Source: a virus. Taken from it: 64,000 nt of DNA. How positions within the stretch are numbered: position 1 is the first letter of the stretch; each line of letters starts with the position of its first letter. Positions 1,556 to 62,676 of the stretch are shown piece by piece. A program made the translations under genes and the position numbers. The stretch lies in IMG/VR virus record IMGVR_UViG_3300019927_000008, positions 2,888 to 66,887 of that record; one strand, given 5' to 3'. A model generated the notes under the pieces. That model made no database searches. It had not been told where the DNA came from and saw only the letters and a program-made list of their open reading frames with translations.

Positions 1556-3111
1556 TGAGTCAACCACTTGGAGAATTTCGGGAGCCTGAAATTCCCGAAG
1601 GGGAGGATGCAGACTTCTATACTGATTCCCCGAAGGGCGTCATCCGTAGCAGTACGGGTGGGGGATCGTCGTCGGTCGGCGGTCAGCGAGCTACCGAAGC
1701 TCCAGAGAACACGATTCAGGAACACCGTCAGATAGCGTACACAGACCCTCACGTTCGAGAGGCTGTGATGACGTTAGTGGACTGGATCGTTGGTGATGGT
1801 TGGAACATCGCTTCTCGCTCTTACAGCGCGGCTCAAGAAGATGGCGTCGGGGCTAACCCTGACGGTCAGACTTCTGAAGAAGGTTCCAGCAACCTTCCGG
1901 ATCAGACCGGAGGGGACGGCCAAGGGCAGATGTCCGACGTTGCGAAGCTTCGCCGCCTTCTCGAAGCCTCCTCCTTTTGGAAAGTCTTCGTGGATTGGGT
2001 CATCTACGCGGCCATTGACGGGCACGCTTTCATGGAACTGGTCGTCGAGGAAGGCCAGTTCAAGCCGAAACTTCTCCCGACTAAGCGGATGAGTCGGAAG
2101 GAAGACAAATACGGCGAGCTTCAATTCTACGAGCTTGAAACTCCCGAAGGTGGGAGTGCTTCTGGTGGTAGTAGCGGCGCGAGCGGAACTAACGGTATTC
2201 GATACAAACCACACGAAGTTGCGGAGCTAACCTTCCTCAAACATCCGAGGGACGACTTCGGACGATCTCTGATCGAGCCGATCTCGGAGCAGGCCGATAT
2301 GCTTCGAGACATGGAGATCGACTACGCTCGCTTCATTGCGACGAAGGCGTACCCTCCGATCCTCTGGAAGCTCGGTGACGAGGATCACAACTGGACGGAA
2401 GATCAGGTCGAAGGTTGGATGGATAACGTGGAGAGCATCGGTCCTGACACCATGCTCGCCGCGCCTCACGACGTTGAGACAGACATCGTAGGCACTACTT
2501 CGACCAACTCTACGGCAGGCGCAATGCGTCTGGAAGAGACGTTCCAACACTTCCAGAATCGTGTCGTCACCGGCCTCGGCGTTCCTCGTGTTCTGATGAA
2601 CATGGACGCTGGTGGGCAGGGAGAGACGACGACTGCGATGCCTTCGTTCAAGCGGCGTGTGAGTCGGCTTCAGACTCGCGTGAAGAACGCCGTCGAATCC
2701 CAAATCATCATGAGTCTCCTGACGGGGACTGCTGGTTTGGATGCGGATTTCCAAGGTACTGTTCCCGAGTTTCAGTTCGGGGAACACAGTTCGGCGGAAA
2801 AGCGGCTGGAGATCGACAAGCTCCTCAATCTGTTCAACAACGGCCTGCTGACACCTGAAGCGTTCGCGGAGCGGGCTGGAATTGACCCTGAAGAGGTTCC
2901 TGATCTATGGAACGCAGGAAATCACCTTGAGAACCTGCGAGCGTTGGCGAACAAAGGTGATGAAGTTCAGAATCCCTCTGGTGGTAGGCCCACCGACACC
3001 GAAGGTGGCTCGGAGTCTGCTGGCGGCGAAGTAACTTCGCGGCAATCTCCGGATTCCGACTCAAGCAATGGTCGGAATAGGCGTTCGGTAACAGAGGAAG
3101 AAGCGGGCTAA
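1555..3111 (+). CDS. Portal protein
   Basis: ATG overlaps the terL stop (TAATG). About 518 aa, position after terL, portal-like segments (DGHAFMELV, FGRSLIEP, GLGVP). Confidence 0.85.
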   Translation: MSQPLGEFREPEIPEGEDADFYTDSPKGVIRSSTGGGSSSVGGQRATEAPENTIQEHRQIAYTDPHVREAVMTLVDWIVGDGWNIASRSYSAAQEDGVGANPDGQTSEEGSSNLPDQTGGDGQGQMSDVAKLRRLLEASSFWKVFVDWVIYAAIDGHAFMELVVEEGQFKPKLLPTKRMSRKEDKYGELQFYELETPEGGSASGGSSGASGTNGIRYKPHEVAELTFLKHPRDDFGRSLIEPISEQADMLRDMEIDYARFIATKAYPPILWKLGDEDHNWTEDQVEGWMDNVESIGPDTMLAAPHDVETDIVGTTSTNSTAGAMRLEETFQHFQNRVVTGLGVPRVLMNMDAGGQGETTTAMPSFKRRVSRLQTRVKNAVESQIIMSLLTGTAGLDADFQGTVPEFQFGEHSSAEKRLEIDKLLNLFNNGLLTPEAFAERAGIDPEEVPDLWNAGNHLENLRALANKGDEVQNPSGGRPTDTEGGSESAGGEVTSRQSPDSDSSNGRNRRSVTEEEAG

Positions 3112-4141: not shown

Positions 4142-4597
4142 ATGGACCTGAATTTCACACAAGTTACCTACGACGGTGAGCTGGCGGACTTCGAGGCCGA
4201 ACGGCTTCGAGAGATCATCCGCGAGTTCGAAAATGCACAGGAGTCCAACGTCGCTGAGTTCGAGGACGCGGCTGACGCACTCGACGGCGTTGATGAAAAG
4301 ATCGAAGACTTCGCGGAGGCGCGACAGGCCCTTCTCGATGACATCACCGAGGCGGAAGCCTTCGATGAAGTCCCGCTGACTGAAGAGGCTCTGGAGGAGC
4401 AGTCCTTCGGCCAGCTTCAGGAGTGGCATGATTTCGTTGCCGATCATGGCGTCGAAACCGGCGACGAGACAGACGAAGCTGACGAGTCCGGTTCGGACTT
4501 CGATGACTTCGGTACGAAGTCTCCCACCCCCGACGATGAGGATGACGAAGACTTCGCGGAAGATGCCCTGAGCGAGATGCAGGGTGTCAACTTCTAA
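4142..4597 (+). CDS. Putative scaffolding protein
   Basis: Very acidic, helical, upstream of the capsid genes. Confidence 0.55.
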   Translation: MDLNFTQVTYDGELADFEAERLREIIREFENAQESNVAEFEDAADALDGVDEKIEDFAEARQALLDDITEAEAFDEVPLTEEALEEQSFGQLQEWHDFVADHGVETGDETDEADESGSDFDDFGTKSPTPDDEDDEDFAEDALSEMQGVNF

Positions 4598-9475: not shown

Positions 9476-9506
9476 CAAGACTTAACTCACACTAACTTAA
9501 TTCATG
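9476..9506 (+). promoter_or_regulatory. Viral promoter upstream of tail tube (probably leaderless mRNA)
   Basis: CAAGACTTAACTC motif; the ATG at 9504 lies at the expected start position. Confidence 0.6.
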
Positions 9507-10030: not shown

Positions 10031-10531
10031 ATGACAGAGAACACCGAAGCTGTTGCTGAAGAAGAGCCTGAAGAAGATAGTGCGAACATCAGCCGTCTCC
10101 GAGAGATGGCACTCCGTGGTGACGACTATCGTGAAGTCATCGAGGACTTCACGTACTACGGGTTGGAGGGCGACCTCTACGTCCGTCCGCTGACAGACCC
10201 CGAGTTCCTTCCCATCGCTTCCTTCCTCGAAGAGCGCCTTGGCCTCGATCCCGAGGAAGCTCAGGAAGCGATGGAGGAAGAGAAGGACGGTCAGGGCAAC
10301 ATCAGCGCCGAGCAGTTCGACAAGGAATTTGTCGCCATCATGCACCAAGCGGCGGCAACGGGGATCGACACAACCCAAGGCATCGCAGAGGGCGAAGACG
10401 AAGAGGGTGTCGCTGAAATTCTGAAAATGCTTCAGGGTGGCAAGTCCCTCGTGATCGCAGAACGGGTGTTGGAAATCTCGTCTGACGCCGAGAAGGCCGA
10501 GCAGTTTCGCAGAGATGGGGGCGGCGAGTAG
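10031..10531 (+). CDS. Tail assembly chaperone (gpG-like)
   Basis: Between tube and tape measure; ends in GGG GGC GGC GAG TAG. Confidence 0.7.
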   Translation: MTENTEAVAEEEPEEDSANISRLREMALRGDDYREVIEDFTYYGLEGDLYVRPLTDPEFLPIASFLEERLGLDPEEAQEAMEEEKDGQGNISAEQFDKEFVAIMHQAAATGIDTTQGIAEGEDEEGVAEILKMLQGGKSLVIAERVLEISSDAEKAEQFRRDGGGE

Positions 10532-21572: not shown

Positions 21573-21719
21573 CGGAAGAGCCGGGATTCGAACCCGGAAT
21601 CCGGAGTGTACGGGGACTTACTGAAAGAGCGATTAGATAGCACTCGATCATCAGCACTCCCTACTCCGATGAACTTCAGTTTAACCCGAAGCGCCTTTGT
21701 CCAATTTGGCTACTCATCC
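21573..21719 (-). ncRNA. tRNA-like RNA (147 nt) with about 76-nt variable region and 8-nt anticodon loop
   Basis: Acceptor GGATGAG/CTCTTCC, Leu/Ser-type D arm, anticodon stem CTTCG/TGAAG with loop GGTTAAAC, T arm CCGGG-TTCGAAT-CCCGG; promoter at 21725-21755. Confidence 0.8.
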
Positions 21720-21724
21720 TTGCT

Positions 21725-21755
21725 GAAGAAATATTCAGGGGGGAGTTAAGTCTTT
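21725..21755 (-). promoter_or_regulatory. Viral promoter for the tRNA-like RNA
   Basis: AAAGACTTAACTC-N-TTTCTTC, ending 5 nt before the RNA. Confidence 0.65.
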
Positions 21756-50306: not shown

Positions 50307-52501
50307 TAGTCGTCAGCCGCCTTGAAGTCAGCATCGAGCGTTTTGTAGTGCGTCTTCTCTACTTCGATCTTCTCGGCTCGCTCTCGAAGCTCCGCTTTCA
50401 CAGCGTTCGAAGAGACACCCGCTCCGGTCGAGAGCTTCTGAAGTAGCCGTTCCGCCTCTCGATCATCGAGGGTGATCGTTTCTTCTCTCTTCGTCTGAAC
50501 GTCTTTGTCTGTTTCTTCGCTGTTCTCGTGCGTCTCCCAACCGACTGTGATTTGACTCATGTTATTTTTGAGGTGCGATCAGAATTATTCCAAGGATCGC
50601 CGCCGACAGCGACCCGACCATCGCTCCGAAGGATATTGCTGTGAAGACACCCCCACCATAGCCTGTCACATCGAGGAGGGCCATGGTTATGACTGCGGTT
50701 AGGGCTGTCCAACACGACGCTAAGATCATTTCGTGGTCTGTCATGGAGTGAATCGAAGTACCCACTTTTTCCAAGAGATCACTACTTCGCCGCTGTCGGG
50801 ATCGGGGTCAACACTAACAAGCTCCGATTCTTCGTCACCGGAGACGAATCTTTCTTCGACTTCGATCACGGCCTTCTCGATGTAGTCGTCGAGTTGATCC
50901 CACTCACCTCCTATCTCGGGAAGGTCGTGTTCCGTTCCGGAGAGATCGGTCAGAGTGTCGTACTCGAAGCGGTACGTCTTCGTCTCTTCGCACTCCCACC
51001 CTTCACCGTAGCGCCCTTCGACGTAGCGACATTGGAGGTGGAAGATCGCCGCTCCATCCTCGATGATGGGGTCGGCTCGGTGGTCATCCATCTCCCACTC
51101 GTGTTCGTGGTGATGGGGTTCGATGATGCCTCCCCGGATGAGGTCGCGTCGGGAAGTACCGGGTGGGTAGCCCCCCATCTACAACCCTCCGTTAAGGCTA
51201 CTGTTCTGACACTCGGTACAGACATCGCCTATGTTCAGAACGGCGTTGCTACACCCTATTTTACGACACTTGATTACACTCATTACAGGATTTCCTTCCC
51301 ACAGTCTTCGCACCGCGCTTTCTGCACCGGAGGCTCGTCCGGGTGGCGTTGCACTTTACCACTCTCGATGTTCACCGATCCACAGTACGGGCAATCACCG
51401 AGGCCATTGATTTCCAGAAGTGCCCCCGTTGAGTTGATCTGGATTCGGTCATCATCGAGAATCCATTTCAGGGCTTTCGCTTCACCAACAGCACGTTTCC
51501 CTCCACGTTCTTCTGGAATGTATTCACCGTCCAGTTCAGCCAGCTTGTCTCGAACTTCTTTTTCTGATTTCATGACTTATGTCTCCGAAGTTGCGTCTTA
51601 CCGAACGAAGTCCCGAAGGTTCGACAGCCCGGCCTTCCCGAGGCCATCAACATCCAGAAGCTCACCATCATCCGCTTGCTGAATGTCCAGAGTGGTACTG
51701 TAGCCGTCATCGTGGAGATTATCAGCCGTCTTCTCCCCGATGTAATCGACTTCGGACCAGTCCATCTCATCGAGGTCCATCATGTCGATGCCGGAGTCGG
51801 GTTTGTGTTCGAAGTGCCCCGCTTCGATCTCGTTGTTGAAGGACACTCTTCGCTCCATCCGGTGTGTGTTGTCCTTGTTCCGACCCGGAGTGTCACTCCG
51901 TAGCAGAACGATCTCTTCGTCGATGTAGAGAATCTGAACGTGTTCGTTGTGTCGCGTTTCGTAGACCTGTCCAGCTTCGGGTTCGACTTGAGTGATCTCT
52001 TTCATCATGTATCGTGGTATGCCGCGATCCAGTCTTCGTAGCCTCGCTCTTCTGCCTCGTCGTTCAGTAGACTGACGAGGAACGTTCGGTGGTGATCCTT
52101 CAGCGGCCACGGATCACTAACCATCATCAATTCGAGGAGTGTACGAAACTCCCAATAGCTCAGATCAGGGTTCGCATCTCTCGGGGTTTTCATGAATCAG
52201 GCTCGTTGAGGTCCACGTCCTCCCACTCGTCTTGAAGTTCTTGCTTCGTGATGCTGTTCTCGACTACATCAGCTAACTCTCGGATGTAGTTCGCCAACGG
52301 CGTCGGGTCTTCCTCGAAGCCATCTTCTTCCTCGATGGCGTCAGCAAGTTCCCGAGCTTGGTCAGCTTCGTAAGCCGCTTCTTCACCACCTGCGGTGATG
52401 ATAACCGTGAATCCACTCTCGGTCGTTGTCGCTTTGATTTGGCCCGTCTCTTGGTTCAGAATACTTTTCGTCACGTACTGCTGTCGTTCTGTTTCTTTCA
52501 T
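50306..52501 (-). other. Cluster of small accessory ORFs, including an HhH-motif protein (51598 region)
   Basis: Coupled ORFs; VDYIGEKTA and VDGLGKAGL helix-hairpin-helix repeats. Confidence 0.6.
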
Positions 52502-52535
52502 GTAGCGTGGTTTTCGGTTCCCATTATAAGGACTT

Positions 52536-52598
52536 GGGCATCGTCAGGGCAACAGCGTCCATCTCGTTGCCAACACCGGGAAGCCCGGTGTTTCGCCC
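52536..52598 (-). ncRNA. Type II hammerhead ribozyme HHR1
   Basis: GGGC-GAAA-C[ACCGG/CCGGU]GUU^[GGCAAC/GUUGCC]-CUGACGA-U-GCCC; loop I GGAC can pair with tail GUCC. Confidence 0.9.
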
Positions 52599-52738
52599 GT
52601 CAGAAGTCTCGCGCCGTTCGCTCTTCGAGGTGATCCGGACAGAGTTTGTCTCCATCGTAGTCATGGAGATTGTCTGTCGCGGTGCAATGCTCACAGGTTT
52701 CCTCACTTTCATTCCCCCAAGGGGTTATTCCGGGGATT

Positions 52739-53068
52739 CTATCCATCATCTTGAACCACATCGGTTGCCGCTCGTTCAGCGGCGTCAGCAGGCTGTTCAG
52801 CGAGGGCCGCGTGTTCTTCCACCACGTCGATGAAGGTGTTGATGATCGTCTCCGAAGTCGCTCGCTTAGAGACGCTTGTGCCTTGCTTGGCGTGCGTCTC
52901 TTTGACGAGTCGGTCGAAGGCGAGGGAATCATTCTCACGAAGCTCCTGTGCTTCGTCAGCGAACGAAGCGCAGGCCGCCGCCGCTCGGAACGCCGCCGTG
53001 TTCCGAACCAGATCAGCCAGTTCGTCGTTGCTCATACTGCCGAGAGCTTGTGGGTTGTCGTCAGCCAT
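52739..53068 (-). CDS. Hypothetical protein
   Basis: First gene after the promoter and mini-tRNA; strong codon bias. Confidence 0.6.
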   Translation of the reverse strand: MADDNPQALGSMSNDELADLVRNTAAFRAAAACASFADEAQELRENDSLAFDRLVKETHAKQGTSVSKRATSETIINTFIDVVEEHAALAEQPADAAERAATDVVQDDG

Positions 53069-53080
53069 TGTAACCTCAAG

Positions 53081-53118
53081 GGGTAGCGGGGAGTCGAACC
53101 CCGCGCCGCCACTTACCC
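53081..53118 (-). ncRNA. Mini-tRNA (acceptor plus T arm) at transcript start
   Basis: GGGUA-AGUGGCGGC-GCGGGG-UUCGACU-CCCCGC-UACCC directly after the promoter at 53119-53149. Confidence 0.75.
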
Positions 53119-53139
53119 TAAGACTCTACTGCTTTAGAG

Positions 53140-53829
53140 TTAAGACTTACGGTCCCACAACACCTCCGGAAGAACTTCTCGATAGAAGGCTGTATGCCGA
53201 GCGTGTTCCTCTCGCTGGTAGTCGTAGATGGCCCATTGGATCAGGAATGGAGGCATCCCGAGAGGGTTCGGAATCTCACCGATTATCTCTTCGCAGGTTT
53301 CGAAGTAGTCTTTCGAAGAGGTGAAGTTGAGAGCGTTTCCGGTTGACTCTTCAAGACCTGCGAAGTTAGCGACGTTCGAATCAACGCAGATGTATTCATA
53401 GAGTCCGGACATCGCCAGCATGAACGAAGCCTTCCGATAAGAAACTCCTTTCAGCTCATCGACGACGACTTCGAGAAGTTCTTCGAAGCGACCTTCCCGA
53501 GCATGGCATCGAACTGCCTCTGCCAGTAAGTCCCACTCCGTGTTTTCGAAGCCGTTCGTGATCCACTCTGTCTTTTGGTTCCCGTAGACAGTCCCGGCGG
53601 CGGCCTTCCCGAGGTCGCTCCCCGAAGCCCACTCTGTAAAGGAACGCTCGTGACGTTCCAGTCCGGTTTGGATAGAGAAGACAGCGAAGACATAGCCGTT
53701 CCGTAGTATCTCTTCGGCCTTCTCTACGGTTCCGGAAAGGAGAAGTGTTCGGGTCTTTTCTGCGCGAGTCAACGACTGAACGTAATCTGGATGGTGGTCA
53801 CTCATCCAGCCTTCGAGTGTTTCATACAT
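53140..53829 (-). CDS. OGG-like HhH DNA glycosylase/AP lyase
   Basis: LKGVSYRKASF...ICVDSNV parallels the archaeal Ogg GxGxKEASHF...IIDRHI motif, with catalytic Lys and Asp. Confidence 0.55.
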   Translation of the reverse strand: MYETLEGWMSDHHPDYVQSLTRAEKTRTLLLSGTVEKAEEILRNGYVFAVFSIQTGLERHERSFTEWASGSDLGKAAAGTVYGNQKTEWITNGFENTEWDLLAEAVRCHAREGRFEELLEVVVDELKGVSYRKASFMLAMSGLYEYICVDSNVANFAGLEESTGNALNFTSSKDYFETCEEIIGEIPNPLGMPPFLIQWAIYDYQREEHARHTAFYREVLPEVLWDRKS

Positions 53830-53845
53830 AAGGGATGGTTGTGCC

Positions 53846-54331
53846 CTACGGGAGAACCGAACGAGTCCCGTCGAGCTTCTTCTGACTGCCGCAACGCCGG
53901 TCAGGTTCGTTCTGCTGAAGCCACTCATCGTACTCGGGATAGTGGTCAGCGAAGCGAGTCTGATACTGTTCGTTCAATGCTTCGATGGCGTCAAGTTCGG
54001 TTGGCGACCAAAGGCCAGAATTGAGAGCCGGTTCTCGGTGGTGGAGATGAGGCCACGCTGTAACGTAGACGAGATGCCCTTCTTCGTGGAAGCCGACTAT
54101 GAGGTAGTATGCCACACCAGCACCCCATACCTTCCGAAAGCAAGCACATCCATCACCGTTGTCTCGTAAGTCCCCCTTCGTAACTGCATCGTAGATCACC
54201 TTCCCGTTCAGGAACCGCTTCCGTTCCTTGAACCGCTGAAGGAAGTGCGGGAGCGGTGAGTAGCGAGAAGGGCGGCGGGGGTAATTCGATGGGTCGAACG
54301 CCCGGCTTCGGTCGAGGGGGAGGGTCTTCAT
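53846..54331 (-). CDS. Hypothetical protein
   Basis: Clean ORF in an operon chain. Confidence 0.5.
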   Translation of the reverse strand: MKTLPLDRSRAFDPSNYPRRPSRYSPLPHFLQRFKERKRFLNGKVIYDAVTKGDLRDNGDGCACFRKVWGAGVAYYLIVGFHEEGHLVYVTAWPHLHHREPALNSGLWSPTELDAIEALNEQYQTRFADHYPEYDEWLQQNEPDRRCGSQKKLDGTRSVLP

Positions 54332-54771
54332 GCTGGCCGAACGAAGGCGTCAGGATCGAGCATGGCACGTTCGATGATGAACTGTGCCGTCTCGTATCCC
54401 TTCCCTTCGGGAGCCTCAAACTCGGCAGAGTCGATCTCCCGAGTCGGTCCATCTTGGTAGTCGATCTCCGCCGCTTCCGGACTCTCCGTAAGTTCCGTGT
54501 TCGGAGAGTTTGACGGAGCGGAGTTTTGTACGAAGACGGAACTTCGTGTTTCGTAGAACAGCGAGAGGTGTGTAACGTCGCTCATTGGTCGTTCCTCCAC
54601 GTCATCGCTTCAGCGAAGCGGCCCATGATCGCGCCGAGGCTGGTCGTGTCGTACTGTTCTTGAATGTTCACGTCGCTGTAACTATAGCCGCCGGATGTAG
54701 ACTGCGTGTTTTTGTGTTCCATTAGGGATTTAGACTGCGTGTCACACTTTCCAACCCCCCTCAAGGGTTGA

Positions 54772-54838
54772 TGGCCTTCCTCTTCATGGGGAACGCGGCC
54801 AGTCGTTCCCGACGCCGGGAAGCCCGGCGTTTCGTCAT
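54772..54838 (-). ncRNA. Variant type II hammerhead ribozyme HHR2
   Basis: C-GAAA-C[GCCGG/CCGGC]GUC^[GGGAACG/CGUUCCC]-C(A)UGAAGA-G; loop UGGCC pairs with tail GGCCA; directly after the promoter at 54838-54868. Confidence 0.65.
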
Positions 54839-54870
54839 TAAGATCGAAGCCCGTCGCTCCGAGTCTTAGC

Positions 54871-56034
54871 CTACTGCGAGGTGGCTTCCTCCAGACGTTC
54901 TTCGGCGTCGTTGATCCGGCTCCGAGTTTCCTGCGGGATCGGTGCGCCGTTCGCCGCGTTCTGGATGTCCTGACGGCGGCGGAAGAAGGCCCGAAGGTCG
55001 TCGTAGACATCTCGGGGAGCGACCTGTGCCTGCCGAAGGCCACGCTCCTTGGCGACCTGTCGGACGGCGGCTTCCACCGAAGGAAGCTCGCTGTAGCTCC
55101 GGTACACCTCTTCGAGAAGGTCCGGGTCCACCTCGAAGACGCCTTCGAACTGCTCCTGATCGGTGAAGACCGGCTCCGTGATGTAGCTGAAGAACCGCAT
55201 CAGCATCGCCAGCTCGTTCACCGAGCAATGGCAGTACGGGTTGAAGAGAAGCCCGTCAGCGAAGTCCGGCTCGACGTTGAACGCCGACCGAATGTCGTGC
55301 TTGTCGTCGGAGTGGGAGTGCTGAAGGCCACACTCATCGACCGGACACTCGAAGGATCGAACCGAAGAAGAACCACCACCGATCATGGACTGAGCGTCCT
55401 GAAGAACGCCCATCACTTCGCCGTCCACGTCGGAGTCCATGTCGGACATGAACTGTTCGAGGGTGTTACTCATGCTCTCACTTCGACCCTCATCGAGCGT
55501 GCTGTGGTTCCCGAGGCTCCACATCCGAACTTCGTAGCTCTCTTCGTCGTCTTCAGTCGCGGTCTGTTCCTCGTCGTTGCCGTCGCCGTTCTGCATGAAG
55601 TCGTACATGGTGGTGTTGTCTTCGTCGTCGTCGGTTTCTGCACTTTCCGTCTCGTCGTCGCTGAAGAGGACGGGTTCGATCTCGGGGTCTTCGTCGGTTG
55701 CCTCACTTTCCGACTCGTCGCCTTCGAACAGTTCGGGGTTGATCTCTACGACTTCGTAGTCGTTGAAGAGGTCCCGAGAGTTTCTGACCGAGGCGAAGTA
55801 GTGAGCTTTCTCTTCGTCGTCGTAGACACTATCATTGTCTATCGCTTCTTGAACGTCACCAGTTTCCACGTTGACGATTGCGAACTTCGTTTCACTACTC
55901 CGTTCTTCTACGTGGTAGGAACCATCTCGGACGATGGATCGAGTCATCCGAGACGCCCTACCCTTTGCATCACCTTTGTCGTCGTAGGTTTGGTACTCTG
56001 TACCGTCTTCGCCAACTACTACGTATTCCGTCAT
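54871..56034 (-). CDS. Hypothetical acidic protein with C/H metal-binding cluster
   Basis: CPVDECGLQH and CHC motifs; follows a mini-tRNA leader. Confidence 0.6.
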   Translation of the reverse strand: MTEYVVVGEDGTEYQTYDDKGDAKGRASRMTRSIVRDGSYHVEERSSETKFAIVNVETGDVQEAIDNDSVYDDEEKAHYFASVRNSRDLFNDYEVVEINPELFEGDESESEATDEDPEIEPVLFSDDETESAETDDDEDNTTMYDFMQNGDGNDEEQTATEDDEESYEVRMWSLGNHSTLDEGRSESMSNTLEQFMSDMDSDVDGEVMGVLQDAQSMIGGGSSSVRSFECPVDECGLQHSHSDDKHDIRSAFNVEPDFADGLLFNPYCHCSVNELAMLMRFFSYITEPVFTDQEQFEGVFEVDPDLLEEVYRSYSELPSVEAAVRQVAKERGLRQAQVAPRDVYDDLRAFFRRRQDIQNAANGAPIPQETRSRINDAEERLEEATSQ

Positions 56035-56080
56035 GGGTTGTGTCCCGTCTATTTCTGCCGCGCCTCGGGGTGGCGCAAAG

Positions 56081-56119
56081 CCCGTCCCCGGAGTCGAACC
56101 GGGGGAAGACCATCACGGG
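56081..56119 (-). ncRNA. Mini-tRNA (acceptor plus T arm) at transcript start
   Basis: CCCGU-GAUGGUCUUC-CCCCGG-UUCGACU-CCGGGG-ACGGG directly after the promoter at 56121-56151. Confidence 0.75.
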
Positions 56120-56148
56120 TTAAGACTCGGGTTGCAGGGAGTTAAGTC

Positions 56149-56820
56149 TTATCTTCTATCCGGAGTGTTTTCGATGGCCCACAACGCCTTCGCCACGAAT
56201 TGAAGCTCCGAGATGGTAAGTCGATACTCACCAACCTCCCGTTTGACGTGATCTTCGGGAGACTCGATTTCTACGTCGTAGGCTTCGACCTTCGAACCAG
56301 CCCCGATGATCGAACCGTCACGGTTCTTGCTGATGACATCGGGATGGTAGAAGTCACCTTCGTAGGTCAACAGAACGTGACCGTTGATGAACCACCCACC
56401 TTCCCGCTCTTCGATCCGCTCCGACAGCGGCTCGACGAAGGCTTCGAGAGCTTCGACCCTCACCATGTCTTCCCGCACCTTCTCGAAGAGATTGATGATG
56501 GGTTGAACGCTCTTTCCATCCCCCTCTTCGTACATCTCTGCCATCGCCTCGATCAGGTCGGTCTTGTGATGAGCGCCGAGGGTCAGATCAGTATTTCCAA
56601 CCCGAAGGGTGTAGGCCTCATCATTTGAAGGGATGATGGTTACTCTCGGCTCTTCTTCGGCTCCTTGAGACTGCCAGACTTCGTTTCCTGCATCGAGAAG
56701 CCCGGCAAGGCCATGACCGTAGATCAGCTTGTTGTAGTCCGAAGACTTCGTTCTGGTTACTGTGCTTCCATCATCCGTCATAACGAGGTAGTTAGTCCCG
56801 TTATCGTCTAAGACTTGCAT
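56149..56820 (-). CDS. Hypothetical protein
   Basis: Clean ORF downstream of the GHKL ATPase. Confidence 0.55.
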   Translation of the reverse strand: MQVLDDNGTNYLVMTDDGSTVTRTKSSDYNKLIYGHGLAGLLDAGNEVWQSQGAEEEPRVTIIPSNDEAYTLRVGNTDLTLGAHHKTDLIEAMAEMYEEGDGKSVQPIINLFEKVREDMVRVEALEAFVEPLSERIEEREGGWFINGHVLLTYEGDFYHPDVISKNRDGSIIGAGSKVEAYDVEIESPEDHVKREVGEYRLTISELQFVAKALWAIENTPDRR

Positions 56821-57015
56821 TGTTACGTTTGCTGTTTCGTTTGTGGGGGATTCTCATTTTGTCCGGTTTGGTCGTACAATTCCATTGCATCGAAGCACTC
56901 GTTGCATGAGAAGCAACGGAATGTGTATCCAGACTTATCTCGGTTCACTTGCCCTTCGCACTTCGGGCAAACCCAACGCCACGGTTCATTAGGATCGGGT
57001 TTTCCCCGATCTGCA

Positions 57016-59856
57016 CTACTGATTTGAGAGGGTTTCACGTAGCTCTTCGCCGCTCTTCTTTGCCGGGTCGATCCCGAGATCGTGGAAGCCGAGGTACAAC
57101 TGCGCCTTCTTGTCGTCCAACGACGAAGGCATCATGTCGTAGATTTTGCTACCGTCTTCCCACTTCGGAGTGCTGTCCATCAGCTTGTACGTCGAGAGGG
57201 AACCGGAGAGTTTGTACCACTTCGAAGGGTTACGACGTTCGTACTTGCTCCGACTAAGCCGAAGGCAAGTGAAGTTCGGACGCCGAAGACTCTCTCCGTT
57301 ACGACTCAAGTAATTGAAGACCCATTGCGCTCGGTCCAAGACCTCCTTTCCAGCGACGGCGTAGAGGGTGTCTCGCTTCTCCGCTTCGTCAACATCGCTC
57401 GGATCATCGTCGCTGTGATAACCACCATCGTAGTTATCGAGGACTTTCAGCCAGTCGATCTGATCCCGAACGTCGTCGAGAACACGTTCTCGAACCCCTT
57501 CCATGTCGTCACCGAGGAGCTTCGTCGAAGTCGCGTGACCCCTTACTTTAGGCTGGTAGGTCAGAACCACCAACCGATCATCCGTCACCAACTCTTCGGG
57601 CGTCATCGCTCCGTCTTCGGTGGCGATCAGAGTGGACCGTGACCACTCTTTGTATTCCTCGATGGTGACGACGTTATCGACTCCTTCGAACTGCTCACGC
57701 TCTTTCTTGCTGACGCAAGCGATGGCGGCGTAGTCAGCCATGCCGTAGTGATCGCTGATGTTAGGCCCCTTGCCCTTCCCGAAGAGAATCAGCTTGTCGT
57801 GACCACCGATCCGCTTCCCTTTGTTGAGTCGATCTCGAACCCGCTTGATCGAGGTTCGCTGGTCGATGGAAGACGAATCTCCGTCGCTTCGAATCTTGAG
57901 GTTTCGTTCCTCGACCTTCTCGGCCTTCGACTTTCGACCGAACTTCTTGCCCTTCTCAACACGATCCCGGTGAATGGAGTCAGGAACGTCGTAGTCGTGA
58001 TCGTCGTCCTGCTTCAGCGGGACATTCTTCAGCTTCTTGAAGCCGAAGTTCTCTTTGAACGGAGTGTACTTCGAAGAAGACACCACGATGATTTCTACGT
58101 CATCATGGGTGTTCTTCGCAACCTTCCAGTATTTCGTGAAGTTCCCTCCGGTTGAAGCCGCCATGTAGACTTCTCCGGGGTCGTTCTTCAGAAGCTCACC
58201 GAGCATCATCTCCCGTCGCCGTCGCTTCTTCGTCGAAGAAGACGCGCTTCGATGACAATGCTCGATCTTATTGAACAGCCCGTAAAGCTGATCGAGACTT
58301 TCGTCGTCGAAGTCCGGAAGTTCATCTCGCTGGTTCATGAAGCCCTCGAACTTCCGACGCTTCTTGAGAACACGACGATGGCCGTGGTAGTTGACCATCT
58401 TCTTGAAGAGGTTCCAGTCTTCGGGCTTGCCTCGAATAGCTTCAGCGGGATGGTCAGCCTCTTCCATCCGCTCTGCGATCTTGCTGACCTTGCTCACTTC
58501 TTTGGACTTCACCGTTTCCTGAACGTGAGCGAAGAACCGCTTCGTCTCCGAAGACTTCTTGAGTCGGTCCCGGTCCCCGGTGGGTTGAGGCATCGGAACG
58601 TCGTCGTCGTGAAGTTTGGCGATCTGATCTTCGTGCTTCGTCGTTCGGTACACCTTGTTGTTGTAGTGGTAGAAGCCACGGTGGGGACCGGCGACGATCC
58701 GACTCTGTTCGTCGTGAAGCTGAATCGCACAGTCCCAAAACGTCTTGATGTTGTACCGGGTGTTTCGGTCGATGGCGATGGAGACGAGGAAGGTGTCTTC
58801 ATCATCGCTACTTCCGTATCCCGAAGTGTCTATCACATCAGGACCGGCAACCACCGAAAACTCACCGGGGCGATCCACCACTACTTCAGGATCGTCGTAG
58901 CTCTCGATGAAGTTCGAGGCTTCATACTCTTCTTCGACCGGGGTAGCTCCGGCATCGTGTTCCCGGTACAGCACCGGGATACGAAGCTGTTCGGTGTAGT
59001 CTTCGATCCAACTCTGAAGGTTGGATAGGTCGAAGCTATCCTGAACAGGGAGCTTGAAGCGAGTCCCGAAGAACCCATCTTCGACTTCACCGGGAAGGGC
59101 GTTGGCTCCGCCGAGGTAGCTGTAAGCCCGGAAGCCTTCTCTGGTTCCGCCGTTTTCGCTTGGCTGGATGCTCCGAGTCTCTACTTCCATCCCGCCATCC
59201 TTTCCGTGAACCAGAGCCGACGACTCGGAACCGACACCGAACATCCCGCCGGTTTCTTCGTCGTCACCATTGCCACCTTGGAAGATTGTGTTGAAGTCTC
59301 CCGCAAATTCGACGGGAGTCATGCCGATCCCGTTGTCTTCGGTGATGATCCGCCGAGCGTCGAGGAACACATCGAAGGTGATCGTCGGATCGTAACCGAG
59401 GGTTCTGGCCGCCTCAACCACCTCACTAATGGGTCGAGGGACTTCCATGACTCGAACGTCAGAGGGATTATCCATGTCGTCTTTCGACGCCACGGTTTCT
59501 CCGGTTTCAGCATCGACGAACTTCGTGATGGTGAGCCACCCTTCGGGGTACTCCGGGGAGTGCCGGATCAGGTCTTTACAGCGTCGAATACAGGCCGTCT
59601 CGTGGTTCTGGAGCCATTCCCGAGGCCATGCCTTGTCGCTTTCGTAGATGAAGTCCGAGAGAAATTCTCCTGCTCCCTTCGCTGACTGCGTTTCGAGAGC
59701 CGACCGTCCGATCTCCTGAACGAGCTGATGATCCTCACCAACCGCTCCGATGTCCTTCACTTGAGTCGAACCCCACGACTTCGACTCGTCGATAACCGGG
59801 GCTTCAGTTTCCGCTTCTTTCTGCTCCATCGTCGTAAGTTCGGTGTTGTCACTCAT
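57016..59856 (-). CDS. Large GHKL (Hsp90/MORC-like) ATPase, rIIA-like architecture
   Basis: REWLQN, EDNGIGM, GMFGVG and GTRF Bergerat-fold motifs in the N-terminal third; 946 aa. Confidence 0.8.
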   Translation of the reverse strand: MSDNTELTTMEQKEAETEAPVIDESKSWGSTQVKDIGAVGEDHQLVQEIGRSALETQSAKGAGEFLSDFIYESDKAWPREWLQNHETACIRRCKDLIRHSPEYPEGWLTITKFVDAETGETVASKDDMDNPSDVRVMEVPRPISEVVEAARTLGYDPTITFDVFLDARRIITEDNGIGMTPVEFAGDFNTIFQGGNGDDEETGGMFGVGSESSALVHGKDGGMEVETRSIQPSENGGTREGFRAYSYLGGANALPGEVEDGFFGTRFKLPVQDSFDLSNLQSWIEDYTEQLRIPVLYREHDAGATPVEEEYEASNFIESYDDPEVVVDRPGEFSVVAGPDVIDTSGYGSSDDEDTFLVSIAIDRNTRYNIKTFWDCAIQLHDEQSRIVAGPHRGFYHYNNKVYRTTKHEDQIAKLHDDDVPMPQPTGDRDRLKKSSETKRFFAHVQETVKSKEVSKVSKIAERMEEADHPAEAIRGKPEDWNLFKKMVNYHGHRRVLKKRRKFEGFMNQRDELPDFDDESLDQLYGLFNKIEHCHRSASSSTKKRRRREMMLGELLKNDPGEVYMAASTGGNFTKYWKVAKNTHDDVEIIVVSSSKYTPFKENFGFKKLKNVPLKQDDDHDYDVPDSIHRDRVEKGKKFGRKSKAEKVEERNLKIRSDGDSSSIDQRTSIKRVRDRLNKGKRIGGHDKLILFGKGKGPNISDHYGMADYAAIACVSKKEREQFEGVDNVVTIEEYKEWSRSTLIATEDGAMTPEELVTDDRLVVLTYQPKVRGHATSTKLLGDDMEGVRERVLDDVRDQIDWLKVLDNYDGGYHSDDDPSDVDEAEKRDTLYAVAGKEVLDRAQWVFNYLSRNGESLRRPNFTCLRLSRSKYERRNPSKWYKLSGSLSTYKLMDSTPKWEDGSKIYDMMPSSLDDKKAQLYLGFHDLGIDPAKKSGEELRETLSNQ

Positions 59857-60053
59857 TTTCGTAGAGGGGGGTAACGTCGATTGCTTTCACGCCATCCATT
59901 CCTTCGAACCGCTCATCGGGGTGTTCAAAAGTGACACTCCAATGGGGATCGAACGCCGGTGATTGCTTACTCCAATCAGGATTATCCGGAACGACCTGAT
60001 AGACGTAGGCAACTGGTTCTTTGTCTTTCATTCGAGATTAGTCCCTAAGTCAT

Positions 60054-60114
60054 GGGCATCATCAGGGGAAGGGCGACTAACTCCCTCCCAACAGGGACGA
60101 TCCCTGTTTCACCC
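60054..60114 (-). ncRNA. Type II hammerhead ribozyme HHR3
   Basis: GGGU-GAAA-C[AGGGA/UCCCU]GUU^[GGGAGGG/CCUUCCC]-CUGAUGA-U-GCCC; loop AGUC pairs with tail GACU; starts right after the promoter at 60115-60145. Confidence 0.9.
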
Positions 60115-60145
60115 TAAGACTCTACTCCTAAGAACTTGAGTCTTT
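60115..60145 (-). promoter_or_regulatory. Bipartite viral promoter
   Basis: AAAGACT-N17-AGTCTTA. Confidence 0.7.
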
Positions 60146-62676
60146 CTAATAGAATAGAGTCTTAACCCAAGCGATAACCCTGTCTTTCAACCCCGCGCCC
60201 TTCTCGCTGTTACCGCTACAGTTAGAATTAGGGTTAACCCCTGTAGGGTCAACACTATAGGGAACACCCTCTGACTGTTCTTCCTCTTCTTCATCATCAT
60301 CGACGAGGAAACGCGACGTGTCCCCTTCGAGAAGCTTCGAAGTTCCTTCGACTGTCGCTTGTTCTTCATCCGGTTCATCCTCGGGAAGGTCGGGGTCGAT
60401 GAAATCGTAATCCTTCATGAATCAAGTCCGTAGTCGATGGAGTTGTTGTTGGTTATCATCCACTCTGTTCCAGATGGGAAGAAGCCCTTATCTTCTCCAT
60501 CGAAAGCGAAGTGACCTTTCACCACTTCACCATCTTCCCAACAGACAGCGAAGCTCCATCCTTCGTGGTAGATGAAACCCACTTCGTCACCATGTTCGTA
60601 GTCTTCTCTTGCAGTTATTCGGTACAGAACTTCGGCGTCTTCTGCCCTCAATGCCGCCTCGAATCTGTCAATCGGTTCGTTGTCGAAGGGATTACTCATG
60701 TCGGAACCAAATCCTGTTACCCTGTTGGTAGTCTTCTTCCCACCCCAACTGCTCCATCTCTCTTCGGAGATGCTTCACGTCAGTCTCTCGAACCTCCAAC
60801 ACGGCTGTTTCAAGCCCGTTGGAACTGTTGTAACGTTTCACCACCAACGCTCCGCTGATGAAGTCTCCGACGCTGACATCCTGTGCTTCGAGCATCATTC
60901 TACGAACCTCCGGAGAACTTCATCATCAGCGAGAGCCATGATCGACCATGCTTCGGGGTACTCTTCTCGAAGCTCCATCACTTTCTTTGCACATTCTTCA
61001 GCTTCTTCGAGAGTGAAATCACCATCTTCGAGATGCTGTTTCATCTGAAGAGCAACGAGACTCATTCTTCACCTCCAAGGGGTTCGAAGCCAGCGATCTG
61101 ATGCGTCGGGGAAGTGTAGGTACTGTTGATCGTTGCCTCACGTTCATCGTTACCGTAAGCGTTGTACCGAATGTAGAGTGACTCTTCACCCATACTTCGG
61201 TTCTCGAACATCCCCTTTCCGTTGTCTTCGTAGTAGGTCAGCCGAAGGCTCTCCCCTTGTTCGAGGATGTAGGACCGAAGAGCCATCATGAGGGTTCGAG
61301 CTTCACAGGAAGTGAGGTAGAAGCTCCGAACTTTGTCGTGATCTCCGACGAGGTTGTTAGCGATGAAGCGAACGTCTTCGATGGTGGTCTTCACTCGAAC
61401 GTTGGGATACCCTTCGCTGACTGTCCGGTAGATGTGAAGCCGTCGTTCTTCGGGGACCGGGATCATGTGAAGGTACTCCTCGAAGGGGGAGTTGTTGGTG
61501 TCGTAGTTCAGAAGCTCCATCAGGCCGACTTCTTCGGTGACGGTGAAGCCGTATTCGTCCTGAAAGACACCGAACGTTTCGTCTTCATCAGTTTCGATCT
61601 GTTCCGTCGTCTGCGAGAGGGTTGCTTGGGTTGTCATAGTCGGTTAAGGACTGCCGAGTCGATTTCGTGTTGATCCGGTACGATTCTCGTCGCCGCTTCG
61701 AAGACATCGGACGCTTCACCAGTCTTCTGAACGCGGATTTCTTTCATGTCGCTCTGTTCGTTGCGCCGGTATCGGATGACTACTTCATACATTGTAAGTC
61801 TCCTATCCCCCCACTAAGAGACTTAAGCGGGAAGGTCGGGGCGTCTACGCCGTTCGTAGTTCTCGTTGAGATCACGAAGGGTCATTGTGGTAGTGTACCA
61901 CGGAACTTCGCCCCGTTCGATCCGCACTTTCACCTTCTCGTCACCATCCCTCGGAACTACCACTTCACCGAGAGGGAGCTGTTTGTCGATCACTTCGAGG
62001 CCTTCGATGGTAGCGATTTCATCGCTATCTTTGCTTTCCCATGTGTTGCCGATCTCCAGTTTCATTCAGCACCACCTCTGAACTCTTCGGTGGTTGCATC
62101 ACCGGGAGGGTTGATGCAGTTCTGCCTTCCTCGTTCGAAGGCTCGATGGAAGTCTCGGGCTACTCTGTCCGAAACATGATCGTTGTTCGAAGCGAGGTAC
62201 GTCCAGTTTCCTAAGATGTAGAGGAAGTGAGTTGAGTCTTCCTTCGCTCGCTGTCTCGAAGCTCGAATGACTTCTTCCAGAACGAGGTCCATCTCGATGG
62301 TGGCTTTGTTGAGATCAGGGAAGAACGACCCTTCTCTCATCTCTATCTCTTCCGGAATCTCGATGGTTTCCAGCCAATGACCGTGAAGCCAAGCCTCTAC
62401 GTTGATGATGCTGGCTTCGAGGTCTTCGTTGAAGGTCATCTCCGTCTTGGCGAAGCTCATCATCTTCCCATCGTAGGCATCCCTTCGGGGAAGCTCTTCG
62501 CAGGGAACGTCCTTTTTGATCTCTCCCGGTACGAAGTACCTCACTCGGCTTCGGAAGGATTCGAAGTCGTGATCGTCTTCGGTGAGGTAGTCAGGAAGGT
62601 CGCCGCCGTCCGTCATGATTCGCTGGTTGTTCATCAGTTCGTCCTTCGCCGCTTCGAGGGTTCCTTTGTCGAACAT
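60146..62676 (-). other. Cluster of small acidic accessory ORFs
   Basis: Coupled chain: 60146-60418, 60415-60699, 60692-60898, 61062-61637, 61823-62065, 62062-62676. Confidence 0.6.

Follow-up and report, generated by a model that had tools for sequence, protein, structure and literature searches.

Minimal tRNA-like elements form a conserved family in haloarchaeal viruses and are candidate viral t-elements

The 64,000-nucleotide (nt) stretch of viral DNA analyzed here (the window; positions 2,888 to 66,887 of IMG/VR virus record IMGVR_UViG_3300019927_000008) carries on its minus strand, just before the gene of a conserved 109-amino-acid protein, a 38-nt element with the shape of the top half of a transfer RNA (tRNA). 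Comparative sequence evidence identifies this mini-tRNA (copy 1; 53118–53081) as a selected mimic of the tRNA top half and as one member of a conserved family, and we regard its fold as real with near certainty. We propose, with belief and doubt in about equal measure, that copy 1 is a minimal viral t-element, that is, a nondecoding tRNA-like structure, cut by RNase P and tRNase Z of the host in a read-through polycistronic RNA.

Results

Copy 1 retains the acceptor stem and T arm of a tRNA and little else. Read 5′ to 3′ along the minus strand, it opens with the acceptor 5′ strand GGGUA (GGGTA in DNA; 53118–53114) and continues with a 9-nt linker (53113–53105; AGUGGCGGC in RNA, AGTGGCGGC in DNA) in place of a tRNA's D arm, anticodon arm, and variable region. 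The T arm (53104–53086) has a 6-base-pair (bp) stem, GCGGGG (53104–53099) paired to CCCCGC (53091–53086), and the 7-nt loop UUCGACU (TTCGACT; 53098–53092); the acceptor 3′ strand UACCC (TACCC; 53085–53081) then completes a coaxial helix of 5 + 6 = 11 bp. An unpaired, discriminator-like C follows at 53080 and after it comes TTGAGGTTACA, leading to the ATG at 53068–53066. The short leader UUGAGGUUACA (53079–53069) contains a Shine–Dalgarno-like GAGG (53077–53074) that may act in ribosome binding. Within the linker is a TGG, the GG of which (53110–53109) is a candidate mimic of the tRNA nucleotides G18–G19. An earlier note on this DNA, made from the sequence alone, had described a 38-nt element with a 5-bp acceptor, a 9-nt linker containing UGG, a 6-bp T stem, and a UUCGACU loop, ending 12 nt before the ATG at 53068, and our reading agrees with it in every one of these parts.

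A second copy lies about 3 kilobases (kb) away, also on the minus strand (copy 2; 56119–56081; CCCGU / GAUGGUCUUC / CCCCGG-UUCGACU-CCGGGG / ACGGG; 46.6 bits with our covariance model). Its T loop and architecture are the same as those of copy 1 and its stems are wholly different. The window is enriched in such structures: a composition-controlled count gives 10 occurrences of the T-arm core GGTTCRAHTCC, with 0.54 expected, and a strict descriptor of acceptor, linker, and T arm finds four loci against 0.36 expected in shuffled sequence, two of the four being copies 1 and 2. Folding energy, which is uninformative for short GC-rich pieces, was set aside as support: the z-scores against shuffles (−0.5 and −0.3) are not significant, the tRNA-like fold of copy 1 (−16.1 kcal/mol) ties with its minimum-energy fold (−16.2), and for copy 2 the two folds are identical. 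That copy 1 is more than a chance arrangement is decided instead by comparison.

A covariance model built from three seed members recovered copy 1 together with other nonseed members, including two in the halovirus HF2 (2906–2944 and 4376–4413). After eight more regions from the HF1/HF2 group had been fetched by BLAST, the model was rebuilt, giving an alignment (A5) of 25 hits, 20 of them distinct. A 71.4-kb relative (L082) came from a pattern scan of viral contigs, and HSTV-2 and HCTV-6 from protein searches. The family extends over the window virus, three uncultured relatives, HSTV-2 and HCTV-6, eight HF1/HF2-group viruses, and two other viral contigs. There are two members in the window virus, three in relative G001, two in relative G002, and one in a JGI contig; HSTV-2 and HCTV-6 have one covariance-model hit each and every haloferacalesvirus examined has two. 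Single members occur in viral contig L264 and in a phage contig of 40% GC (L164), the latter also present in L178. The two main copies are about 3 kb apart in the window virus, G001, and G002 alike. Copy 1 itself was assigned by family membership and through same-spacing counterparts in two relatives, not by strict orthology.

Pairing is preserved across the family while the paired letters change. Among the 20 distinct members, 219 of 219 pair cells are standard, a proportion inflated by the fact that hits were picked and aligned with a structure model, which counts against reading it at face value. Compensatory changes affect 10 of the 11 pairs: all five acceptor pairs covary, as do five T-stem pairs, and only the G–C pair closing the loop is invariant, as it likewise is in tRNAs. 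When partners are slid by one to three columns, pairing drops to 45–59% on A5 and to 42–59% on alignment A4; an independent RNAalifold prediction arrives at the same fold. All members have the T loop UUCGA-N-U, a GG stands near the 5′ part of the 9- to 10-nt linker in each of them, and 17 of the 20 have a C directly after the helix. Three pairs are G·U or U·G and would be A·C mismatches on the opposite strand. Because of these and because the T-loop consensus is met with on one strand only, the active form is best read as RNA of the sense strand; the element is also co-oriented with neighboring genes wherever those are annotated or supported by homology.

Two sets of comparisons stand independent of selection by the structure model. 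At the junction of the genes for homologues of a 223-amino-acid (aa) and a 387-aa protein, three unrelated stem sets occupy the same place (copy 2; L082:4294–4331; HSTV-2, L001:2617–2659). Among the HF2-group orthologues, which were found by BLAST, the acceptor changes from CTCCG/CGGAG to CTCTG/CAGAG to CCCCG/CGGGG. Stems thus differ completely between positional equivalents as well as between copies. Moreover, in about 1.5 megabases (Mb) of viral loci that are unrelated and had all been selected for having a tRNA-like T-arm motif, there were only four further hits, so the model does not simply pick up tRNAs. On this comparative sequence evidence, we conclude that the element is a selected mimic of the tRNA top half and belongs to a conserved family. 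The members in L164 (3601–3639, minus) and L178 (4565–4603, minus) read GCAAG, GGCGGCTTTT, CCGGGG-TTCGATT-CCCCGG, and CTTGC, followed by C. These contigs, of about 40% GC, are unrelated to haloviruses. The mini-tRNA design may be widespread or have arisen more than once.

The element is not a tRNA: it has no D arm and no anticodon arm, and it scores below the gathering threshold. Rfam returned nothing at gathering thresholds and only chance-level matches at permissive ones; its tRNA model (RF00005) has no match at 53081–53118 or 56081–56119 even at E values up to 10, and neither this model nor ARAGORN calls the element. The best subthreshold Rfam match of copy 1 is mascRNA-menRNA (RF01684; 18.3 bits, E = 0.28, gathering score 42.5). 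As far as its sequence can tell, the element does have the structure of a t-element, with an acceptor-like helix continuous with a T arm, a T loop UUCRANY closed by a G–C pair, and no decoding part. The GenBank record of HF2 has no feature at 4347–4445 or 2876–2978, and the other GenBank records fetched are likewise without annotation of the element. The study of HF2 promoters (PMC8707807) describes the promoter only, with zero occurrences of "RNase P" and "stem-loop", and the halovirus literature that we searched mentions tRNA-like sequences only for the phage attachment site (attP) and a tRNA-Pro-like gene. The element is thus a candidate minimal, viral form of the t-element type, neither annotated nor described in the sources searched.

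Several GenBank hafunavirus records have coding sequence (CDS) starts that run over the element, at 2626–2665 in L131, L132, and L133, 2535–2574 in L135, and 2506–2545 in L136. The overextended CDSs are L131:2632–2988 (HRTV-10 gp119), L132:2623–2991 (HJTV-1 gp118), L133:2623–2991 (HRTV-5 116), L135:2532–2897, and L136:2503–2871. In the curated records of HF2, Serpecor1, and Hardygib1, the same gene starts about 70 nt later, and judging from the sequences, the long starts over the mini-tRNA are probably wrong.

Copy 1 is preceded by repeated promoter-like boxes. The TATA-like box AAGTCTTAAC (53148–53139, minus) resembles the alpha motif CTAAAGACTTAGAA of HF2 promoters (PMC8707807) and has embedded in it the TAA stop of the upstream open reading frame (ORF; stop at 53142–53140). 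It lies 22 bp upstream of a second box, GAGTCTTA (53126–53119, minus), which abuts copy 1, occurs 12 times against 1.8 expected, and is also found directly 5′ of copy 2 and of a hammerhead at 60122. In reverse complement this second box reads TAAGACTC, similar to the same box as it stands on the opposite strand, and such a near-palindrome could permit antisense transcription, as reported for HF2 repeats. Boxes of the AAGWCTTAAC type occur 16 times against 5.4 expected, at intergenic positions. The repeated box AAGACT[TC]AA[CG] has 15 sites in the window and one just past it; these are intergenic and often paired about 22 bp apart, and examples lie at 9477 (plus) and at 21754, 22615, 28980, 33992, 41209, 41243, and 62240 (minus). 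The earlier note had called the element promoter-proximal. This description fits copy 1 in that a promoter-like box adjoins it, and it does not extend to the family, since the HSTV-2 element at the copy-2-equivalent junction has no promoter-like box upstream; neither does the L264 member.

The parent virus record of the window is 71.8 kb long, and the window itself carries a tRNA cluster and encodes proteins that share about 40% identity with proteins of HSTV-2, HRTV-7, and HCTV-6 (Hafunaviridae, genus Mincapvirus). Downstream of copy 1 is the gene for a 109-aa conserved protein to which no function is assigned (53068–52739, minus). With 56 homologues, several of them on contigs of about 72 kb, it is a real gene as judged by sequence conservation; one homologue is in the chromosome of Haloplanus rubicundus, at a locus that also has an integrase-like gene. 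Upstream is a 262-aa gene resembling endonuclease III and HhH-glycosylases (53928–53140, minus), with a weak Ogg-HhH match and with tblastn matches to genes annotated as endonuclease III in HATV-2 and HGTV-1. This gene is co-directional with copy 1, and no T-run terminator separates the two. DNA searches with the flanks of copy 1 against a phage collection gave no match, nor did single-protein locus searches in viral and genome collections. A link between the mini-tRNA and a viral RNA ligase was considered and dropped because RtcB is absent from the genome of the window virus.

Most family members are followed by a second hairpin 3′ of the mini-tRNA, then by a leader, GGGACACAAC or GTGACACC, and then by the ATG. 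For copy 2, the trailing hairpin is GCGCC-N7-GGCGC (56076–56060, minus), which recurs in relatives with compensatory changes, and the conserved leader GGGACACAAC (56046–56037, minus) precedes the ATG at 56034. The corresponding hairpin and leader regions of HF2 (L003) are at 4419–4445 and 2948–2978. Because the trailing hairpin covaries among HF2-group viruses (CAGTAGC/GCTACTG, CGGTAGC/GCTACCG, CGATAGC/GCTATCG), the whole 5′ untranslated region (UTR) of most members appears, from these alignments, to be a composite structured unit.

Other cleavable RNAs occupy slots equivalent to those of mini-tRNAs. In three relatives (L257, L258, and L259), the 109-aa homologue is followed downstream by a spacer with hammerhead core motifs and then an GGGACACAA-like leader. 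In the window, a hammerhead begins directly after the GAGTCTTAG box at 60122. The motifs (GAAA, a GUH site, and CUGAUGA or CUGACGA) lie at 60040–60122 (minus) in the window and at L257:1849–2066, L258:1831–2065, and L259:2156–2280. The window hammerheads were called from core motifs in the sequence; Rfam over 52300–60300 gave no hammerhead match even at E values up to 1. In HF2, true tRNAs come after the IR2 and IR3 promoters. Because three kinds of cleavable RNA thus fill equivalent slots, the mini-tRNA may be a cutting signal too, and we rate this as the best argument for processing.

Further tRNA-like pieces are present in the window. At 47283–47340 (plus), a truncated 58-nt piece has an acceptor and the T arm GGTTCAAATCC without proper D or anticodon arms; it sits at the 5′ end of a tyrosine-integrase ORF (46186–47349, minus) and, by analogy with HrrHF2_450 in HF2, is probably the attP of the virus. 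A second type of anticodon-less mimic, with a longer linker holding an GGTAATCAGGCC-like motif, occurs at 41253–41305 (minus) in the window, at 61212–61250 in HSTV-2 (L115), and in HCTV-6 (L116). In the window virus it stands just before promoter-like boxes, and its HSTV-2 and HCTV-6 counterparts have an AT-rich promoter-like motif about 35 nt further downstream. Finally, an isolated T-arm-like hairpin, CCGGG-TTCGAAT-CCCGG, at 21600–21560 (minus) is without a convincing acceptor partner.

Discussion

The element keeps those features of a tRNA that tRNA-end enzymes read, namely the helix of acceptor and T arm, the elbow, and the discriminator. Starting from the fold, conservation, strand, and position described above, we infer the steps that involve enzymes, from recognition and cutting to the fate of the released piece, as follows. 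Placed on the sense strand, with a co-directional early gene on either side, the element would be recognized by host RNase P in read-through RNA. RNase P would cut at its 5′ edge, near 53119/53118, and tRNase Z would cut after C53080. After these cuts, the glycosylase-like cistron and the 109-aa gene would be on separate RNAs, the messenger RNA (mRNA) of the latter would have an 11-nt 5′-monophosphate leader carrying the GAGG ribosome-binding-like motif, and a mini-tRNA of about 39 nt would be set free. The GG of the linker could dock on the T loop and so rebuild the tRNA elbow. Should transcription start inside the element, RNA initiated at the promoter would escape cutting and only read-through RNA would be processed.

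Precedents for several of these steps exist. With Co2+, two archaeal RNase Z enzymes cut precursor tRNAs lacking the D arm or the anticodon arm, the acceptor stem being needed; with Mg2+, only one of the two still tolerates a missing D or anticodon arm, and in a bacterial RNase Z–tRNA structure the enzyme touches the T arm and acceptor stem (PMC7479834). In living Haloferax volcanii, RNase P and tRNase Z cut t-elements that flank a cargo RNA (PMC4326828, PMC4946936). The precedent invoked in the earlier note, cleavage by Haloferax tRNase Z of a tRNA-like structure upstream of 5S ribosomal RNA (rRNA), holds according to the literature cited (Hoelzle et al. 2008, 2012, as reported in PMC4326828 and PMC4946936). 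Like these t-elements, the viral element has a nondecoding tRNA-like fold in a haloarchaeal setting, and ordinary tRNA-end enzymes, whose action on the viral element is predicted, define the end of the neighboring RNA. Unlike the viral element, the Haloferax structure is cellular, stands upstream of 5S rRNA, and has a demonstrated cut. The viral element is 38–40 nt long without D or anticodon arms and stands before protein genes in two to three copies per genome. In plant mitochondria, too, tRNA-like t-elements help form the 5′ and 3′ ends of mRNAs, as described by Forner et al. 2007 (PMC1920247). As portrayed there, these organellar structures are generally larger, cloverleaf-like remnants, and they have no sequence relation to the viral element.

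In vertebrate nuclei, the mascRNA and MEN-beta modules are tRNA-like parts of longer transcripts in which cuts by RNase P and RNase Z form the flanking ends and release a small RNA. In outline this is how we propose the viral element works, and its likeness to mascRNA-menRNA (RF01684) may be one of working and not of membership: the D and anticodon region is deleted in the alignment to copy 1, the vertebrate RNA is nuclear, and the element is no member of that family. Closer at hand are the type II hammerhead ribozymes of haloviruses, described by Perreault et al. 2011 (PMC3088659) and annotated in HF2 at 10292–10359. In the same viruses they fill intercistronic slots, or slots beside promoters, equivalent to those of the mini-tRNA, in relatives they stand before a similar GGGACACAA-like leader, and both would cut the message; however, they are self-cleaving, have an unrelated fold, and need no host enzyme. 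The class I intergenic-repeat promoters of HF2 (PMC8707807) are related in another way: their alpha motif resembles the box upstream of copy 1, and the HF2 element at 4376–4413 is homologous to copy 1, whereas that paper covers the promoter and makes no mention of a tRNA-like fold at this place.

Where transcription starts bears directly on what can be cut. The only experimental 5′ end near any homologous element is the HF2 start T-4384, which Russ, Pfeiffer and Dyall-Smith (2021, PMC8707807) located with RNA of infected cells by primer extension, a method that cannot tell primary from processed ends. This start lies downstream of an alpha-type box like that before copy 1, and G4384 is the first G of the linker GG in the HF2 element, 8 nt inside it and past the acceptor 5′ strand. 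Counted from the AAG of the box, the linker G is 38 nt away both in HF2 and in copy 1, where the equivalent base is G53110, and the letters around the start, GAGT and then G, resemble the initiator of HF2 class I repeats. On the other side, two genes of the window virus have their ATG only 27–28 nt after the start of the box, and both mini-tRNAs and one hammerhead begin at the base after GAGTCTTA(R), which would fit a start near 53118–53121. We give roughly even odds to a start inside the linker and somewhat less than even odds to one at the first base of the element. The earlier note had assumed the latter, with the element's own promoter producing the RNA to be cut, and had held that a start mapping inside the acceptor stem would refute its proposal of tRNase Z cleavage; the HF2 start, lying past the acceptor 5′ strand, places the cutting of such an own-promoter RNA in doubt.

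With a start inside the linker, RNA from the element's own promoter would be without the acceptor 5′ strand and hence without an acceptor stem. Since the acceptor nevertheless covaries, the fold would then have to act in read-through RNA coming from the upstream gene. Several observations fit read-through: no terminator intervenes upstream of copy 1; the HSTV-2 and L264 members have no box; and in HF2 a cDNA (complementary DNA) primer at 2937–2924, inside the element at 2906–2944, gave a product reaching back into gene 005. The HF2 transcript F2 has its 5′ end somewhere from gene 005 to position 3073, within the spacer containing the element at 2906, and spans the element at 4376.

A number of observations weigh against processing as we propose it. 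Cleavage, a small RNA, or a processed end has been observed for no member. The helix has 11 bp where the canonical length is 12, and the D and anticodon arms are missing together, a combination outside the published deletion tests consulted. HF2 G4384 coincides neither with the expected RNase P site (4376) nor with the tRNase Z site (about 4415), and reverse transcription PCR (RT-PCR) in HF2 detects RNA spanning the element at 4376, so that cutting, if any, is incomplete. Copy 1 is also atypical, having only UUGAGGUUACA before its ATG and neither the hairpin nor the GGGACACAAC leader found after most members. In the six relatives examined, moreover, the 109-aa homologues abut or overlap the upstream gene and have no mini-tRNA upstream. 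Because the element is lacking at these six loci, the module of promoter box and mini-tRNA before the 109-aa gene is, on sequence comparison, lineage-specific and arrives with the glycosylase-like gene.

The same HF2 mapping inspires an alternative that we consider unlikely, namely that the element is an uncut part of the 5′ UTR. Transcription would start at G53110, and the RNA would begin with GGCGGC and a T-arm hairpin, which would shield the 5′ end or bring in a tRNA-binding factor for translation; neither RNase P nor tRNase Z would make a cut. The start at G4384 within the HF2 element, the shared 38-nt spacing, and the class I-like GAGT-G initiator all favor it, and the second covarying hairpin and conserved leader after most members suggest an organized UTR. 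Such a transcript, however, would have lost the acceptor 5′ strand, yet all five acceptor pairs covary in the 20 members; the HSTV-2 copy-2 equivalent and the L264 member have no promoter-like box upstream; and primer extension is blind to the distinction between primary and processed ends.

Promoter and mini-tRNA could also be combined into a two-state device, a reading to which we assign little probability. RNA started inside the element would stay uncut with a capped-off 5′ hairpin while read-through RNA would be cut, switching the gene between operon-coupled and autonomous expression, and the excised mini-tRNAs, possibly CCA-tailed, would serve as small RNAs occupying or diverting the tRNA-processing or tRNA-sensing machinery of the host. 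Quite improbable, in our estimate, is a pure decoy or sponge, in which the mini-tRNA, released or embedded, diverts a host protein that reads the tRNA elbow and acceptor end and does not shape the mRNA; candidate targets are RNase P, tRNase Z, the CCA-adding enzyme, a modification enzyme, or a tRNA-directed defense factor. The element does keep exactly the parts that such proteins read (the helix of acceptor and T arm, the T loop, the GG, and the conserved base after the helix), and it is present in two to three copies per genome in early-gene regions. Two to three mRNA-embedded copies are nevertheless a low dose for a sponge, the stems vary freely with no particular tRNA identity kept, and interchange with hammerheads in equivalent slots points to cutting and not to binding.

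We think it highly improbable that the inverted repeats act as DNA, as promoter architecture or a regulator site around the start, with an incidental likeness to tRNA. Repeated promoter-like boxes adjoin copy 1 at a fixed distance, and the HF2 start falls inside its element, as this explanation would have it. But a protein-binding site would conserve sequence, whereas here the stems change freely with pairing kept, the loop fits the T-loop consensus of tRNAs only when the sense strand is read, three G·U pairs are tolerated, and some members are without any promoter-like box. A decayed tRNA gene or attachment-site remnant of integration or recombination, with no present function, is hardly credible even in a virus with a tRNA cluster and several truncated tRNA-like pieces, given perfect pairing kept through many compensatory changes across virus genera, a 5′ strand placed precisely 9–10 nt before the T stem, the distance of about 6 kb between copy 1 and the integrase ORF (46186–47349) with its tRNA-like piece (47283–47340), and the fact that the attP of HF2 is a different element (PMC8707807). 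Copy 1 is also unlikely to be an attP itself, as it is not beside the integrase gene; stems that differ completely between copies and between positional equivalents are not what one would expect of such a site.

The element probably corrects CDS starts in several GenBank hafunavirus records. Should processing by RNase P and tRNase Z prove real, tailed haloarchaeal viruses would use minimal tRNA mimics to punctuate their long early transcripts, much as tRNAs do in mitochondria, and viral gene expression would require the two enzymes as host factors. With its 38 nt, the element would then be the smallest natural substrate of its kind, and it may offer a part for archaeal RNA-processing tools, among which a system of t-element-flanked CRISPR RNA (crRNA) already exists. 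A common logic of leader removal would join the tRNAs that follow HF2 promoters, the hammerhead ribozymes, and the mini-tRNAs.

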